Origin: Patescibacteria group bacterium
Lineage (GTDB): Bacteria; Patescibacteriota; Patescibacteriia; UBA10025; JAHIVO01
DNA length: 64,000 nucleotides
NCBI GenBank assembly: GCA_041660605.1
Contig: JBAZWB010000001.1
Coordinates: 462,879-526,878, forward strand
Reading direction: 5' to 3'
How positions within the stretch are numbered: the stretch's first letter is position 1; the number at the start of each line of letters is the position of its first letter. Both the position numbers and the translations under genes were made by a program. This document shows, piece by piece, positions 20,746 to 28,200 of the stretch. The notes under the pieces were generated by a model that did no database searches, was not told where the DNA came from, and saw only the letters and a program-made list of their open reading frames with translations.

Positions 20746-22302
20746 ATGCCCCAAAAAACTACAAAAAAATCCAACGGCACGAACGCCGGCTTTGAAGCGA
20801 CTCTCTGGGCCGCAGCTGACAAAATGCGCAATAACATGGATCCGGGTGAATATAAGCACGTGGTTCTTGGTTTGATTTTTATCAAGTACATTTCCGACGC
20901 TTTTGAAGAGATTTACAACAAAATCAAAGCTGATCCTGACCACTACGAAGGTCAAGAAGAAGATAGAGACGCATACACGTCGGAAAGTGTCTTCTGGGTG
21001 CCACAAGATGCACGTTGGGAATATTTGAAATCAAATGCCAAGAAGCCAGAAATCGGCAAGCTTGTTGACGATGCAATGGTTGCAATTGAGAAAGACAACC
21101 CCAGCCTAAAAGGAGTTCTCCCAAAAAGTTATGCCCGTCCTGACTTAGACAAAGTTCGGCTTGGCGAGTTAATCGACCTCATCAGCACCATCGGCCTCGG
21201 CGATAAAGAAAGTCGAAGTAAAGATATTCTTGGTGGCGTCTATGAGTATTTCCTCGGACGGTTTGCTTCTGCCGAAGGTAAGGGCGGTGGTGAATACTTT
21301 ACTCCAAAATCTGTTGTGAAATTGCTCGTGGAAATGCTCGAGCCATACAAAGGCCGCGTCTACGACCCCTGTTGCGGTTCAGGCGGCATGTTTGTGCAAA
21401 GTGAAAAATTCGTTGAAACACACGGTGGCAGCAGGCACGACCTCGCAATTTATGGACAGGAATCAAACCCGACCACTTGGCGCCTGTGTAAAATGAACTT
21501 GGCCATTCGCGGAATCGAAGGCGACCTTGGGCCTCATAACGCCGACACATTTCACAATGATTTACATAAAGAGCTCAAAGCTGATTACATTCTCGCCAAT
21601 CCGCCATTCAATATCAGCGACTGGGGCGGTGAGAGATTGAAAGACGATGTCCGCTGGAGTCTTGGCGTGCCGCCTGCAGGTAATGCCAACTACGGCTGGA
21701 TTCAGCATATGGTGCATCATTTAGCCACTACTGGTATCGCTGGGTTTGTCTTGGCAAATGGCTCACTGTCGTCAAACACATCTGGTGAAGGGGAGATACG
21801 AAAAAAGATGATCGAAAAAGGCCTGGTGGACTGTATCGTCGCTATGCCAAGTCAGCTTTTCTACACCACGCAAATTCCTGCGTGTTTGTGGTTTGTTTCA
21901 CGGGAGCGGCACGACCACAAATTCCGCGACCGACATGATGAAATTCTATTCATTGACGCTCGTAAAATGGGGACAATGATCACGCGTAAAAATAGGGAAT
22001 TAACCACAGAAGATATTGAAAAAATATCTGGCGTCTACCACGACTGGCGCAATAAAAAGGGTAACTATAAAGACGTTAAGGGTTTTTGCAAAGCAGCGAA
22101 AATTGAGGAAGTTGAAAAAGCCGGATTTGTACTCACCCCCGGCCGTTATGTTGGCACGGATTATGTGGAAGAAGATGACGGTACTTTTGAAGAGAAAATG
22201 ACAAAATTGACGAAGGAATTATCTGGTCAATTCAAGCAGTCAAAAGAACTTGAGGAAAGGGTGAAGAAAAACCTCAAAGATATCGGCTATGAAATCAAAT
22301 AA
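20746..22302 (+). CDS. hsdM: Type I restriction-modification system methyltransferase subunit
   Basis: HsdM N-terminal domain plus N6-MTase motifs ([13 protein letters not shown] in [12 protein letters not shown]). Confidence 0.9.
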
Positions 22303-23251
22303 AGTTTTAGTAATCTTTGAGACGAATATTATTAGAAATCCGAAATATAATTTTGGCGAAATAGATTTTGGATCGGATTTTGGCTCAGTACGAGAATATG
22401 TAAGAAATAATGAACTAACAAATCTTGTTGATTTCGCAATTGCACAGATGAGTATCGACGAACTATCTTATGGAAGGCAAGCAGAATATCAGAGTGATAA
22501 GGGGAAGCTTTTTGAGTTAAGTAGCAGAATGAATGGCGTGCCAGGATTTAAAATTATTAATCCGCAAGATGATTTTCAGTTTCCCACATTTTATAGGGGG
22601 CATGTTAATAAATTTATTAAACGAAATAAGTTGATCATAATTGGGTATCCTCCAAAAATAGTCTTTAGTAATGTAATTCTAAGAAGTTTAGAGAAGCGCC
22701 CGCCTTTTTTGGTGTCAAATCAACATTCTGATTATGGGTTTAAAGATGTAATCATTTGGGAATCGATTTTATGCTTTAAGTCAATACGAAAATATAATAA
22801 AGTTGTTTTATTTACAAATGATTTAGGATTTGAAAGTCAATGCGAAAAAGAATTTTCAAAAGTTCACCCGTGTTACTTTAAAATTTGTAAAGATTTCGAG
22901 AGTGTTATTAAAGAACTTGAAGTAAGTGAGGGTATCAAAGTTGCGATTGAGGGTGACACTGATATAGCGGACGATGAGCGCACGGAACTTATAGCGCTGG
23001 TGTATTCAGATTATTTTATTTCAAGTTTAACTAACTTTATTAAAGAAAGTATAAAAATTGATGAAGGTAGATCTATTGAGCTTTTGAGTCCGATGACTAA
23101 TTCTGAAGACAATATTATTGACGATGAAGTCGTTGGAAAAATTATTTATTCCAAAGCCAGGGTTAAAGTTGATGGTGAAATAAAGAGAATTAATATTAAA
23201 ACTGTTCTTGATGATGCTAATGGCATAGAAAGTCATGAGATATATGAATAA
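22289..23251 (+). CDS. unknown protein with predicted PIN-like N-terminal domain, embedded between hsdM and hsdS
   Basis: Pattern [11 protein letters not shown] ... DVIIWESIL ... VLFTNDLGF resembles the PIN acidic-residue layout; overlaps hsdM by 14 nt and hsdS by 17 nt; very AT-rich. Confidence 0.45.
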
Positions 23252-24392
23252 AACGAGCGCAAAATCTATTAAGTCGGAAACGGAGTATTACCCAGATGGG
23301 TGGAAACTGAATATAATTGGGGATTTTTTATCACTAGAATATGGCAAAGGACTAAAAGAAGATCTGCGAAAGCCGGGTAAGGTTCCTGTGTATGGTTCGA
23401 ATGGTGTTGTTGGTTATCATAATGAACAAATGGTAGATGGTCCAGGAATTATTGTTGGAAGGAAGGGGAGTGCGGGGGAGGTTATTTTTTCTAAAAAAGG
23501 ATTTTTCCCAATTGATACAACATATTTTGTTAAAACTAATTTAGATAAAAGCTATATATATTATTTGTTAAAAAACCTTGACCTTAAAAAATTTGTTGGT
23601 AGTAGCGCAGTCCCTGGTTTAAATAGGAATGATGTTTATTCTCAAATAGTAGCAATACCCAAAGCGGAAAACGAACAACAAAAAATCGCCGAAATACTTT
23701 CTTCCCTCGACGACAAAATAGAGCTCAACCGGCAGATGAATGCAACCTTAGAAAAAATCGCCAGTACACTTTTCAAAAAATGGTTTGTGGATATTGGTGA
23801 TGAGTTGCCAAAGGGGTGGAAGAAAGGTGCAATCAGCGATTTCGGAAGTGTCATATGCGGGAAGACACCACCAAAATCGGTAAAGGAGTATTTTGGTGGC
23901 AATTTTCCTTTTATTAAAATACCCGATATGCATGGGAGTCCTTTTATCTTTATTACAGAAGATAGTCTTTCTGAGATGGGGATGAATTTTCAAAAAAATA
24001 AGGTAATCCCAGCTGGTTCTATTTGTGTAAGTTGTATTGCTACAGTTGGCTTAGTAAGTATGACGACCGTTAATTCGCAAACCAATCAGCAAATTAATTC
24101 GATTGTTCCTTCGGAGAAGTATTATCAGTTTTATCTATACGAAACATTTAAAAATATTAGTGGACTACTGCAAAGAATGGGTAGTAGTGGTTCTGCAACA
24201 CTAAATGTGAATACAACCTCTTTTTCCGCTATAGAAATATTAAGACCCACTGACGCAGCCCTAGAAAAATTCGACAGAATTGTAAGGCCATTTTTTGATC
24301 AAATAAAACATAATTTACAAGAAAATATCAATTTATCAATTCTTAGAGACTCACTTTTGCCTCGTTTAATGAGCGGAAGGATTAGGGTATGA
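23235..24392 (+). CDS. hsdS: Type I restriction-modification system specificity subunit
   Basis: Two target-recognition domains separated by conserved IPKAENEQQKIAEILSSLDDKIELNRQ; C-terminal LPRLMSG. Confidence 0.85.
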   Translation: MRYMNKTSAKSIKSETEYYPDGWKLNIIGDFLSLEYGKGLKEDLRKPGKVPVYGSNGVVGYHNEQMVDGPGIIVGRKGSAGEVIFSKKGFFPIDTTYFVKTNLDKSYIYYLLKNLDLKKFVGSSAVPGLNRNDVYSQIVAIPKAENEQQKIAEILSSLDDKIELNRQMNATLEKIASTLFKKWFVDIGDELPKGWKKGAISDFGSVICGKTPPKSVKEYFGGNFPFIKIPDMHGSPFIFITEDSLSEMGMNFQKNKVIPAGSICVSCIATVGLVSMTTVNSQTNQQINSIVPSEKYYQFYLYETFKNISGLLQRMGSSGSATLNVNTTSFSAIEILRPTDAALEKFDRIVRPFFDQIKHNLQENINLSILRDSLLPRLMSGRIRV

Positions 24393-25210
24393 TATTTTTA
24401 CGATATTTTATTAAAAGATATTGGTCATATATTATCAACGTTTGTGTTGGCATTTTTTCACTTTTAGCACCATTTATTTTTCCATTTCCAAAAAATATCT
24501 TTGGCGTTGAGTTGTCATTAGGAATATATCTTTCTGTTTTTTCATTATTTTTAGCATTTATTTTGTCTCTATTCCTAGCCTCCAGACCGAAAAAATTATT
24601 TCATATTTCTTTAACAAGTAGAAAACATGGTGATTTGTGGGTTGGCAATGGGACCTTTGACTATGACCGAGAACGTAAGACGCATTTCATTACCAATTCA
24701 TTTTATGGCTTTATTTTCCCACCAGCACTTAATTTAGTTGATTATAAAGTAACCTTTGAATTTAAGATTGCAACGTCGTGCCTTGGTGTAATTGTCCGGG
24801 CAGTAAATTCATACGATTTCATAATGCTACAAATTGAGAAGCAGGGCATTAACCCACATGTATTTTTGAATGGTGCTTGGCAACGATTTGAACATTCAGC
24901 GACAAATCTTTCATTTGTTCCTATGATAAATGAGGATAAATGGTATAAGGTCACAATATGTTGTTTAAAAAAGAAAATTTCCATTCAAATGATAGATTTT
25001 GATTTTAATCGCGAATGGCAAATTCCACAAACAATAGTTCTTAATTTTCCAAAAGGTAAACCTAAAGATAAAATACCGGGCGAAGAAATTCAAGTTGAGG
25101 AAGTTACACCAATATATTTACCTGTGAATTTAGATATTGGCACTATTGGTTTCAGGAACGCAGGTCAAGAAAAAGCGTATATAAAAAATGTTTATATTGA
25201 ATCAATTTAA
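24389..25210 (+). CDS. membrane-anchored protein of unknown function embedded between hsdS and hsdR (possible jelly-roll/LamG-like domain)
   Basis: Two N-terminal TM helices, then a ~200-aa soluble domain (YKVTFEFKIATSCLGVIVRAVNSYDFIMLQIE); ATGA overlap with hsdS. Confidence 0.45.
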   Translation: MIFLRYFIKRYWSYIINVCVGIFSLLAPFIFPFPKNIFGVELSLGIYLSVFSLFLAFILSLFLASRPKKLFHISLTSRKHGDLWVGNGTFDYDRERKTHFITNSFYGFIFPPALNLVDYKVTFEFKIATSCLGVIVRAVNSYDFIMLQIEKQGINPHVFLNGAWQRFEHSATNLSFVPMINEDKWYKVTICCLKKKISIQMIDFDFNREWQIPQTIVLNFPKGKPKDKIPGEEIQVEEVTPIYLPVNLDIGTIGFRNAGQEKAYIKNVYIESI

Positions 25211-25219
25211 TTAAGTTAC

Positions 25220-28200
25220 ATGTCATATAAAAAATACACCGAATCTGATTTAGAAAACGCAATCCTTGAATGGCTTGAGGAGTTAGGGCACTCGGTTATA
25301 TTTGGTCCAAATATTGCTTTTGATGGCGAATCGCCAGAACGCAAAACATATCAAGATATTGTTTTAGTTGAACGGCTGCGGGCTGCTGTCCAGCGAATCA
25401 ATGCTGAAATTCCTCATGAAGCGCGAGAAGAGGCAATAAAAAAAGTGGTTAACGCTGCGTATTCTAGCCCGAGCCCGATGGTTACCAATCGTGAGTTTCA
25501 TAGAATGTTGGTTGAAGGTGTTGATGTTGAATACCGACGTAAAGATGGGTCAATTGCAGGGGATAGAGTTTTACTTATTGATAAAGAGAAGCTAGGAAAC
25601 AATGACTGGCTGGCTGTGAATCAGTACACGGTCATTGAGAATAATCACAATCGACGGCCTGATGTGGTGGTGTTTGTGAATGGTTTGCCGTTGGTGGTGT
25701 TTGAGCTCAAAAATCCAGCGGATGAATATGCCAAAATTCAGGGTGCATTCAATCAGATTCAAACATACAAAAACGAGATTTCATCACTTTTTACTTATAA
25801 TGCATTTTGCGTAATTGTTGACCACGTGAAAAATGGGCTGGTGGGTACTATATCGGCAAACATGGATCGATTCATGAGCTGGAAAAGTGTTGATGGCCAG
25901 AAAGTTATTAAGAGTAATGATGTTGAGACACTGATAAAAGGAATGTTTGATAAGCAGCGTTTGCTGGATATTGTTTCGAATTTTATTGTATTTGAAGATG
26001 AAAAAGATTCTAAGAATAACGTCAATAGAACCACCAAGAAGCTCGCAGCGTATCACCAGTATTTTGCGGTAAATAAAGCTGTTGAGCGAACGGTTGTAGC
26101 GACATCGCCAGACGGTGATAGAAGGGCAGGGGTGGTGTGGCATACGCAAGGGTCAGGCAAGAGTTTGAGCATGGTGTTCTATGCCGGGAAGATTATCCAG
26201 CGGCTAGATAACCCAACGCTTGTACTACTTACCGACCGGAATGACTTAGATGGCCAGCTTTTCGGCGTGTTTTCCGGCTGCCATGATTTAGTTCGTCAAA
26301 CTCCAATGCAGGCAGATAATCGAGCACATTTAAAGACTCTGCTCAATGTGGCATCGGGCGGTGTTGTATTTACAACCATTCAAAAGTTTTTCCCTGAAGA
26401 TAAATTTGAAAAGCATCCATTACTTTCAGACCGCAAAAACATAGTCGTGATTGCTGATGAGGCGCACCGGAGCCAGTATGATTTTATTGACGGATTTGCG
26501 CGGCACATGCACGATGCTTTACCTAATGCATCGTTTATTGGCTTTACTGGTACGCCGATTGAACTATCCGATAAAAATACCCGGGCGGTGTTTGGAGAAT
26601 ACGTAGACGTGTATGATATTATTCGCGCGGTGAATGATAAAGCGACGGTGCCGATTTACTACGAAGCGCGGTTGGCAAAAATCGAGCTCATTAAAGCAGT
26701 CACGCCGACAATTGATAAGGATTTTGAAGAGCTGACCGAAGGTGAAGAGGTAGCAAAGAAAGAAAAACTCAAGAGTAAGTGGGCGCGGCTTGAAGCAATG
26801 ATTGGTTCCGAAAAGCGCATCGCCTTAATTGCTCGTGATATCATTGATCATTTTGAAGCGCGATGTTTTGCAATGGAAGGCAAGGGGATGATTGTGGCCA
26901 TGAGCCGAAGAATTGCAGTTGAATTGTATGAAGAAATTATTAAACTTCGGCCACAGTGGGCAAATACTGATTTACGAAAAGGTTTTATTAAAGTAGTAAT
27001 GACCGGATCAGCGAGCGACCCCGAAAATTACCAGCAACATATTCATACTAAAGATGATCGTGATGTTTTAGCGACTCGCATGAAAGATCCATCAGATGAA
27101 TTAAAGCTGGTGATTGTACGAGATATGTGGCTGACTGGTTTTGATGTGCCCTCACTTCATACGATGTATGTAGATAAACCGATGAAAGGGCATGGTCTGA
27201 TGCAGGCAATCGCACGTGTAAACCGAGTGTTTAAAGACAAACCAGGCGGATTGATTGTTGATTATCTTGGTATAGCGCCATCTTTGAAAGAGGCGGTTGC
27301 ACAGTATACGCAAGAAGGAAAAGAAGAGCCAACAATTGATCAAGAAGAGGCGGTGAGTGTTATGTTGAGTAAGTACGAGGTGGTGAAGGATATGTATCAT
27401 GAATTTGATTATAAGCAGTACTTTTCTGGTAAAGCCAAGGATAAAGCCGAGGTGGCTGGAAAGGCAATGGATTATATCCTGGGTTTAAGTGACGGGAAGA
27501 AACGCTATTTGCAAGCAGTAGCAGAATTATCTCAGGCCTTTGCCTTGTCTGTTCCAAATAGCGAAGCGTTGCGAATTCGTGATGAGGTAGCGTTTTTTCA
27601 AACTGTACGAGAATTTATTGCTTCATTTGAAAAAGGTGGTGGTTTGGGTGGGCCAACAATGGACGACTATGATCAGGCGATAAAGCAGCTCGTCGCTGGA
27701 GCGGTCGTATCAGATGAGGTAATTAATATTTTCAGTGCAGCTGGTTTGAAGACTCCAGACATTTCAATTCTTTCTGATGAATTTTTGAAAGAGGTGAAGA
27801 ATTTGAAACGAAAGAACGTTGCATTTGAGTTATTGAAAAAGTTGCTTAATGACGAAATTCGCTCCATGGAAAAGAAGTTTTTGGTAAAGTCGCGGTCATT
27901 CGCCAAAATGCTTGAAGAAACTATTAAGAAGTATCAAAATCAAACAATTGAAGTTGCGCAAGTTATTGCTGAGTTGGTTGATTTAGCTAAAAAGATTCGC
28001 GAAGAAAAGGGGAGAGGTGAAAATCTTAATCTTACTGAAGATGAGGTGTCATTTTATGACGCTCTTTGTGACAATGAGAGCGCTGTTCGCGAACTTGGCG
28101 ACGAAACACTGAAGAAGATTGCTCATGAACTCGTTTCGATGCTACGCAAAAATACTTCGATTGACTGGACACTCAAAGAACAGGTAAGGGCAAAATTACG

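Follow-up and report, generated by a model that had tools for sequence, protein, structure and literature searches.

A family of membrane-anchored DUF1080-like proteins encoded in and beside restriction loci as a candidate accessory anti-phage module

The type I restriction-modification (R-M) operon in a 64,000-nt stretch of a Patescibacteria group bacterium genome (GenBank assembly GCA_041660605.1, contig JBAZWB010000001.1, positions 462,879 to 526,878 of the forward strand; hereafter the window) carries between hsdS and hsdR a gene, here called gene Y, whose product Y is predicted to combine two N-terminal transmembrane (TM) helices with a concanavalin-like beta-sandwich. Judged by its sequence relatives, gene Y is a real and conserved gene for a small inner-membrane protein, of a family for which literature searches found no earlier description. 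A role in defence is a credible candidate by association, i.e., from the embedding of the gene and from the gene content around its homologues. The explanation that we favour over its rivals is that Y is a mobile single-gene anti-phage module, sensor and membrane effector in one and accessory to restriction, and we put the probability of this at about 0.4.

The hsdM, hsdS and hsdR genes of the window, typed with Pfam and PADLOC models, make up a complete type I system (Table 1). The initial annotation of the window had placed a gene between hsdS and hsdR, and an open reading frame (ORF) lies exactly there. The start codon of gene Y overlaps the hsdS stop codon TGA in the tetranucleotide ATGA (positions 24389–24392), and its own stop codon TAA (25208–25210) is separated by 9 nt from the ATG of hsdR (25220). 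A further gene with a GC content of 31.5%, gene X, is embedded between hsdM and hsdS, which it overlaps by 14 and 17 nt, respectively. It encodes a PIN-like nuclease without a match in PADLOC; PIN-like toxins linked to type I hsd genes have been described (PMC5499597). Every junction in hsdM-X-hsdS-Y-hsdR is therefore overlapping or almost abutting, and as the interval from hsdM to hsdR contains no terminator-like site, and promoter-like matches only at chance level, the arrangement is consistent with a single operon. An Rfam scan of the operon returned nothing. Genes X, hsdS and Y form a low-GC cassette whose edges coincide with gene boundaries. Such a low GC content inside an operon of higher GC suggests that recombination replaced the variable middle of the locus, X-hsdS-Y, with sequence from a lower-GC donor.

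A word-indexed search retrieved seven relatives of Y with 35–37% identity, and a protein identical to Y is on record, annotated as hypothetical, from a 960-kb contig of a Patescibacteria metagenome-assembled genome (MAG). A profile made from an alignment of these seven sequences (A1) was searched against 1.84 billion cluster representatives and matched 439 of them at E ≤ 1e-3, 197 at E ≤ 1e-10 and 52 at E ≤ 1e-30. The matches of 250–330 aa mostly have two N-terminal hydrophobic helices. The family shares the motifs WxGxG, RAxNLSNYxMLQI, PHxxxNGxW and GxIGFRNxGxExA, and the N-terminus of Y aligns with the family consensus. With a large family, conserved motifs and an aligned N-terminus gene Y can be taken as genuine, and a chance ORF is ruled out by this conservation. 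Pattern-based retrieval from A1 gave 21 loci in species-representative genomes, of which 18 were solid, all of them in MAGs (Patescibacteria/Saccharibacteria, Nitrospirae, Gamma- and Deltaproteobacteria, Spirochaetia, Omnitrophota, and Acidobacteria), as well as 73 loci in metagenomes; merging of Y proteins at least 95% identical left 77 distinct loci. No homologue was found in a scan of viral contigs or in tblastn searches of plasmids and phages, and a second word-indexed search with a profile of the Y domain added no new architectures.

The C-terminal part of Y is predicted to fold as a concanavalin-like beta-sandwich. An initial AlphaFold2 (AF2) model built from 7 sequences had a predicted local distance difference test score (pLDDT) of 70.8, and its Foldseek matches were CBM66, DUF1080-type '3-keto-2-hydroxy-glucal hydratases', galectins, and LamG. 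A model built from 43 sequences reached a pLDDT of 90.7 and a predicted template modelling score of 0.83, with two N-terminal helices (Table 1) followed by a beta-sandwich at residues 70–272. In the fold comparison CBM66 was the best structural match, while legume lectins and galectins ranked lower, and the modelled concanavalin-like beta-sandwich is superposable on DUF1080 crystal structures. A fold search of BFVD with Y gave only generic ConA-like tail or receptor-binding domains.

Sequence comparison places the domain in the same group, although at a distance. The Y protein of the window gave only sub-threshold matches in Pfam (E 0.01–0.55, well below gathering scores), no match to the hidden Markov model of PF06439 even at E ≤ 1 (gathering score 26.8 bits), none in NCBIfam, and none at E ≤ 1 to the 5027 models of PADLOC-DB v2.0.0, PDC and HEC models included. 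PF06439 was, on the other hand, matched at E ≤ 1 by 19 of 43 full-length family members (best E 7.2e-8), and the more distant proteins found with the Y profile contain PF06439 in the corresponding region, with E-values down to 2.9e-29. A domain-only profile searched against the sequences in the PDB found the DUF1080 structures 4jqt (E 1.5e-4) and 3s5q (E 2e-3), with the characteristic last strand included. The only match of the full-length profile in the PDB, the TM region of signal peptidase complex subunit 2, was judged spurious. The Y family is thus a divergent branch of PF06439/DUF1080, within which the Y of the window is a divergent relative below model-level membership. The guess of a LamG/DUF1080-like jelly-roll in the initial annotation was borne out by Foldseek of the AF2 model and by the family-level homology to PF06439, and the peptide quoted there for its beta-rich alternation (YKVTFEFKIATSCLGVIVRAVNSYDFIMLQIE, residues 119–150 of Y) lies within beta strands of the model.

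Members of PF06439/DUF1080 (the 3-keto-disaccharide hydrolase family; 3imm, 3h3l, 3u1x, 3hbk, 4jqt, 8tda, and 8v31) share with Y the concanavalin-like fold, detectable sequence homology and a common C-terminal strand motif, G-x-[IV]-G-[FL]-[RQ]...FRN[VI]. They differ from Y in that Y has a TM-hairpin anchor, a domain predicted to be cytoplasmic and no signal peptide, and in that Y is found among restriction and defence genes whereas DUF1080 is found in the context of carbohydrate utilisation. CBM66 of the Bacillus subtilis levanase (4b1m/4azz) has 16% identity to Y and is, unlike Y, an extracellular glycoside hydrolase appendage with neither a TM anchor nor a defence context. Within the Y family G86, G88, G107, Y119, K126, R137, Q148, H157, G251, G254, R256, and E261 are invariant or nearly so, and the aromatic residues W84, W185, and W210 are conserved along with the polar ones.

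The two-TM anchor proposed by the initial annotation is seen both in Kyte-Doolittle hydropathy and in the AF2 model as two N-terminal hydrophobic helices, joined by a short, charge-poor loop. In all 72 of 72 two-TM members the distribution of lysine and arginine follows the same pattern, with on average 4.3 such residues in the N-terminal tail, 1.1 in the loop of about 8 residues and 5.3 in the linker after the second helix. By the positive-inside rule the hairpin is therefore predicted to be N-in/C-in, with the beta-sandwich at the cytoplasmic face of the membrane. Fifteen three-TM variants have an extra N-terminal TM segment, and their charge pattern keeps the orientation of the last two helices and the same C-in scheme. 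Cleavage of the first helix as a signal peptide would not alter the predicted cytoplasmic placement of the domain. The positive-inside analysis also led us to reject a secreted or surface lectin as another identity for Y.

The homologues of Y recur in the same position in other type I operons. Neighbours within four genes on either side of Y were clustered, and the Hsd proteins of the window were used as phmmer queries. Among the 77 loci the largest recurrent neighbour clusters were HsdS (11 loci, in 8 of them immediately upstream), N6-methyltransferase (10 loci) and HsdR (7 loci, in 5 of them immediately downstream). The order hsdS, Y, hsdR on one strand was found in L036, L056, L059, L063, L064, L070, L082, and L083, and precomputed Pfam annotation added two further independent loci, L105 and L107. 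The junction between hsdS and Y is often a 4-nt overlap, as in L056, L063, L064, and L082. Type I genes were present within four genes of Y in 10/77 loci, in 9/48 of those with at least 1 kb of upstream sequence and in 8/42 of those with at least 2 kb, against 0/160 for control genes at least nine genes away from Y in the same loci. This corresponds to an enrichment with a binomial P of about 6e-9 at an assumed base rate of 1%, a value that depends on the base rate chosen. The contigs of the first seven relatives were without type I genes, and the lack of any link to R-M that these indicated was overturned by deeper sampling. The initial annotation had named two outcomes that would have told against it, a lack of homologues in other R-M loci and a match to a housekeeping membrane protein; homologues of Y do occupy the same slot between hsdS and hsdR elsewhere, and nothing of the housekeeping kind was matched.

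Type I operons are not the only setting. Homologues of Y are tightly attached 3' of Type ISP genes (L077 and L089), a GmrSD type IV gene (L080), methyltransferase/IIG-like genes (L008 and L022) and RloB (L065), and in L077 an Mrr gene lies directly downstream of Y. Other close neighbours are PD-T7-1, OLD-TOPRIM, SIR2, Abi_2, Mrr, DpnII restriction endonuclease, and N6_N4 methyltransferases, as well as Pycsar-type TIR, SLOG, BrnT, DUF3800, and trypsin-like proteases. For example, a full-length PD-T7-1 homologue (L001:5485-6855, minus strand; PADLOC 4.8e-164) is convergent with the Y homologue P0007 at a distance of 40 nt. In operational terms Y is thus a defence-island or R-M-embedded gene, sited recurrently in or beside defence systems across diverged homologues and taxa.

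Several observations indicate that Y is not a co-evolving Hsd subunit. No conserved partner gene beyond R-M components was found among the neighbours of Y, also when jackhmmer was used, which rules out a hidden conserved two-gene system among them. None of the other Y loci has a homologue of gene X, and a functional pairing of X and Y was rejected for this reason. The type I-embedded members do not form one clade, and in a neighbour-joining tree non-embedded members are mixed among them. Together with the low-GC cassette these findings argue for a mobile and self-sufficient module, and they indicate that the family lands repeatedly in restriction loci as such a module.

The domain has also been combined with other N-terminal parts. 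In P0071 (L111:2362-3549) an Mrr_cat restriction-nuclease domain replaces the TM hairpin before the same beta-sandwich, and upstream of the gene, at a distance of 87 nt, is an HsdR fragment that matches the HsdR of EcoR124I (E 3e-27). In P0126 (L112:775-2295) a zinc ribbon (DUF2321) and an adenylate/guanylate cyclase are fused to a Y-type domain, and the gene adjoins an MNT/HepT pair. P0071 and P0126 may each be a defence candidate in its own right. In defence proteins a sensor domain usually shows itself by this pattern, in which the C-terminal domain is kept and the output modules before it are exchanged, and by analogy we infer that the Y-type domain may act as a sensor with swappable effectors.

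In the model that we prefer, Y would most likely work as a mobile sensor and membrane effector. The N-terminal hairpin would hold the beta-sandwich against the cytoplasmic face of the membrane, and the module would insert within restriction systems or at their side, in most cases between hsdS and hsdR with translational coupling to the former, and also beside other anti-phage genes. A ligand that arises from infection, either a phage protein or a sugar- or phosphate-bearing molecule, would bind to the conserved polar face of the domain. Binding would drive assembly of the membrane hairpins and the membrane would be compromised, with growth arrest or abortive infection as the outcome and second-line cover against phages that escape the co-encoded restriction enzyme as the benefit. 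Ligand sensing and membrane disruption are here inferred by analogy. The precedents are RonA and PrrC, both taken up below, and two-TM effectors of CBASS. The TM effectors of CBASS (Cap15 and Cap14), Pycsar and type III CRISPR systems have an N-terminal TM pair and a cytoplasmic beta-rich ligand-binding domain. Y has the Cap15-like architecture of two N-terminal TM helices followed by a domain predicted to be cytoplasmic, although the fold of the domain is different. No CD-NTase or cyclase partner was found among the recurrent or immediate neighbours of Y, and a fused cyclase was found in one distant relative, P0126. The abortive-infection effector suggested in the initial annotation would be compatible with this architecture.

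The same architecture could serve a more novel purpose. The lectin-fold domain would then be a new type of immune receptor for a sugar-bearing signature of infection, signalling cell shutdown through the hairpin, and its ligand would be glycosylated or hypermodified phage DNA or the nucleotide sugars that phages use to make it. We regard this as highly improbable, but were it true several types of restriction system would gain a dedicated backup against phages with restriction-proof modified DNA.

A number of observations weigh against Y being a sensor-plus-membrane-effector module. About 80% of the Y loci have no recognisable R-M gene within four genes of Y and many of the neighbours are unknown proteins; some loci contain only unknown or mobile-element genes, and L001 is also near housekeeping genes. 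Gene calls in the loci come from a greedy ORF caller, which is a crude method, and many of the contigs are short; the dependence of the enrichment on an assumed base rate has been noted above. In the TM hairpin the frequency of the most common residue is 0.38–0.43 compared to 0.61 in the domain, and only hydrophobicity is conserved; such a hairpin would suit a passive anchor at least as well as it would a specific pore. The Y of the window is itself an outlier, alone on a long branch of the neighbour-joining tree and substituted at near-invariant sites (F70L, W116L, L141S, S142Y, and N143D), and it may be a fast-evolving or partly degenerate copy. Finally, those members of PF06439 that have been characterised either are enzymes or bind carbohydrates. 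The polar residues that are invariant in Y may form a catalytic site, in which case the domain could be effector rather than sensor.

Four other explanations for Y have to be weighed, and two of them tie it directly to the restriction complex. Y could be a guard of the PrrC/RonA type, held inactive on HsdMS or the full Hsd complex and freed as a membrane toxin by an anti-restriction protein such as Ocr, ArdA, or a Stp-like protein. PrrC of the EcoprrI type I locus, with its second-line concept, is like Y embedded between hsdS and hsdR of an intact operon, and Y occupies this PrrC slot with coupling to hsdS by ATGA or -4 nt overlaps; the Mrr-nuclease relative also adjoins hsdR. RonA (Ronin) provides the precedent of a TM effector that is caged by HsdMS and triggered by ArdA or Ocr, and it is proposed to kill by disruption of the inner membrane (Silas et al., 2023, 10.1101/2023.04.06.535777). 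The likeness is limited in both cases. The ABC-ATPase and anticodon nuclease domains of PrrC were not found in Y with Pfam, NCBIfam, or PADLOC, the fold is different, and Y is membrane-anchored where PrrC is not. RonA is a single-TM peptide of 61 aa, whereas the 273 aa of Y comprise a pair of TM helices and a folded domain of 200 aa, and Y is found in complete systems, among them the window operon with its intact hsdR, as well as elsewhere. More importantly, PrrC and RonA are almost exclusively type I-linked while only about 13–19% of the Y loci are, Y is attached equally tightly to the structurally unrelated Type ISP, GmrSD and IIG-like enzymes, the type I-embedded members form no clade, and several 20-kb Y loci lack any Hsd-like gene. 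A guard of this kind is therefore unlikely, even if we rank it ahead of the other alternatives. The same distribution, with most members away from type I genes, several unrelated restriction enzymes as neighbours and no clade, weakens the suggestion in the initial annotation that Y couples the restriction complex to the membrane. In a broader form of that suggestion Y would be a spatial adaptor that kills no cell and instead brings restriction enzymes to the inner membrane, by tethering or recruitment, or detects there the DNA-injection apparatus of the phage, so that phage DNA would be met where it enters. The association with DNA-cutting restriction systems of several types, a hairpin that resembles a generic anchor and the likely co-translation with hsdS and hsdR would all agree with this, as would SNIPE, a working defence localised at the injection site with poorly conserved TM anchors (PMC13190303). 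It would, however, require a single conserved beta-sandwich surface to bind Hsd, ISP, GmrSD, and IIG enzymes alike, which is unlikely. Many members have no restriction gene nearby or stand beside non-nuclease systems (SIR2, PD-T7-1, and proteases), and the Mrr and cyclase fusions have no TM segment at all. We consider such an adaptor improbable.

The remaining two explanations do without a link to the complex. Homology to PF06439, whose characterised members are enzymes, raises the question of whether Y is a membrane-proximal enzyme with a catalytic DUF1080-like domain, like 3-keto-glycoside hydrolases/hydratases, that acts on a sugar-containing substrate, be it in defence or in metabolism. 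Nucleotide sugars, lipid-linked glycans and glycosylated phage DNA were considered as substrates, the last for example if Y blocks glycosylation of phage DNA. The invariant polar and aromatic set listed above (Y119, K126, R137, Q148, H157, R256, E261, W84, W185, and W210) is typical of a carbohydrate site, and Y co-occurs with GmrSD, a type IV enzyme for glycosylated DNA. Yet the best structural match, CBM66, is a non-catalytic binding module, the Y of the window falls below the threshold of PF06439, and the DUF1080 enzymes known to us are secreted or periplasmic and not cytoplasmic and membrane-anchored. A catalytic role is in our view quite unlikely, standing behind the guard and ahead of the adaptor, and the enzyme and adaptor explanations both stay alive because the TM helices are weakly conserved while the polar residues of the domain are invariant. 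Y could also be a passenger, i.e., a selfish or niche-specific membrane protein of variable, horizontally exchanged regions such as hsd loci, with no part in defence. The low-GC cassette X-hsdS-Y indicates horizontal acquisition, recombinases are found near Y in some loci, most neighbours in the non-R-M loci are unknown, and the housekeeping genes of L001 also fit a passenger. A passenger would hardly be expected to keep its position with tight stop/start overlaps within intact operons in at least nine distinct loci, nor to have neighbours dominated by defence families, and searches of plasmid, phage, and viral collections turned up no member of the family. This explanation seems to us more improbable than the adaptor.

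That accessory genes are embedded in type I operons is in itself not new. PrrC and Rlo genes are known examples, TgvAB is embedded in a type I operon of Vibrio cholerae (PMC11411939), and a 'guilt by embedding' survey of RefSeq genomes has found such genes to be common (Payne et al., 2024, 10.1101/2024.01.29.577857). The embedding logic of the HEC and PDC candidates in that survey and of TgvAB is that of Y, and genes embedded in this way can function without the system that harbours them. With embedding common and RonA known as a TM effector tied to HsdMS, the initial annotation overstated its case in calling a membrane component inside an R-M operon unusual. What is new in Y is the domain composition of an R-M-embedded defence candidate, and neither DUF1080 nor lectin terms occur in the paper or tables of Payne et al. 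(2024). As all recovered genome records with Y are uncultured MAGs, RefSeq-based surveys may have missed the family. If its role in defence is true, Y represents an overlooked and widespread single-gene immune module with hundreds of 50%-identity clusters in Patescibacteria/candidate phyla radiation, Nitrospirota, Proteobacteria, Omnitrophota, Spirochaetes, and Acidobacteria, from uncultured lineages that such surveys miss. It would also be the first link of the DUF1080/concanavalin-like 'carbohydrate' fold to intracellular anti-phage sensing, and a compact case in which to study why accessory genes are built into the junction of hsdS and hsdR. Should Y be a passenger only, the finding would still be a record of an insertion slot that is conserved in type I operons.

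Table 1. Features of gene Y and its operon (window positions) and protease genes near Y homologues (positions within the respective locus).
Feature	Location	Strand	Basis
hsdM, type I methyltransferase subunit, 518 aa	20746..22302	+	Pfam N6_Mtase 3.9e-110, HsdM_N 9e-28; PADLOC MTase_I 7e-238
Low-GC cassette X-hsdS-Y	22250..25250		GC 31-36% vs hsdM 46%, hsdR 42%, window 44%
Gene X, PIN_12 (PF16289/DUF4935) PIN-like nuclease, 320 aa	22289..23251	+	Pfam PIN_12 1.7e-12, above curated cutoff
hsdS, type I specificity subunit, 385 aa, two target-recognition domains	23235..24392	+	Methylase_S x2, E 4e-44; PADLOC Specificity_I 5e-108
Gene Y, 273-aa membrane-anchored DUF1080-like protein (predicted)	24389..25210	+	ORF, ATG start
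Y, predicted TM helix 1, residues ~13-33	24425..24487	+	Kyte-Doolittle peak 15-33, score 2.19; AF2 helix 2-30
Y, predicted TM helix 2, residues ~43-65	24515..24583	+	Kyte-Doolittle peak 46-64, score 2.48; AF2 helix 42-65
Y, concanavalin-like beta-sandwich, divergent DUF1080/PF06439, residues 70-273, predicted cytoplasmic	24596..25207	+	
hsdR, type I restriction subunit, 1032 aa	25220..28318	+	HSDR_N 1e-46, SWI2_SNF2 9e-81, T1RH-like_C 5e-126; PADLOC REase_I 1130 bits
Protease genes near Y	L003:3567-5231, L007:1357-2220, L024:3320-4186, L025:12279-13562, L074:10848-11792, L077:2709-3857, L089:12565-13851		

Two gene families recur around Y apart from the known defence systems. DUF3800 genes lie beside or inside Y-bearing type I operons in four loci (L039:8716-9462, L063:6150-6953, L070:968-1672, and L105:11992-12540), and DUF3800 may be another embedded candidate family. 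Genes for trypsin-like serine proteases were found within four genes of Y in seven loci (Table 1). The two of these that were scanned against PADLOC, from L003 and L007, have a weak likeness to the protease part of RT-Protease_XI, a protease-fused reverse transcriptase, and the L007 protease also resembles PDC-M35A.

In the window itself, hsdR is directly followed by a gene (28625-29359, plus strand) for a 244-aa protein with a MerR-type helix-turn-helix (PADLOC mad1 8.5e-11) and a weak DrmA-like stretch, and then by a gene (29369-29698, plus strand) for a 109-aa DUF4325 (STAS-like) protein. These two may form a further two-gene module of the same island. Further downstream, translation of a 182-aa ORF (30270-30818, plus strand) revealed an HExxH-type motif, HELCH, and that of the 309-aa ORF after it (31001-31930, plus strand) the Fic-type motif HPFADGNGR.

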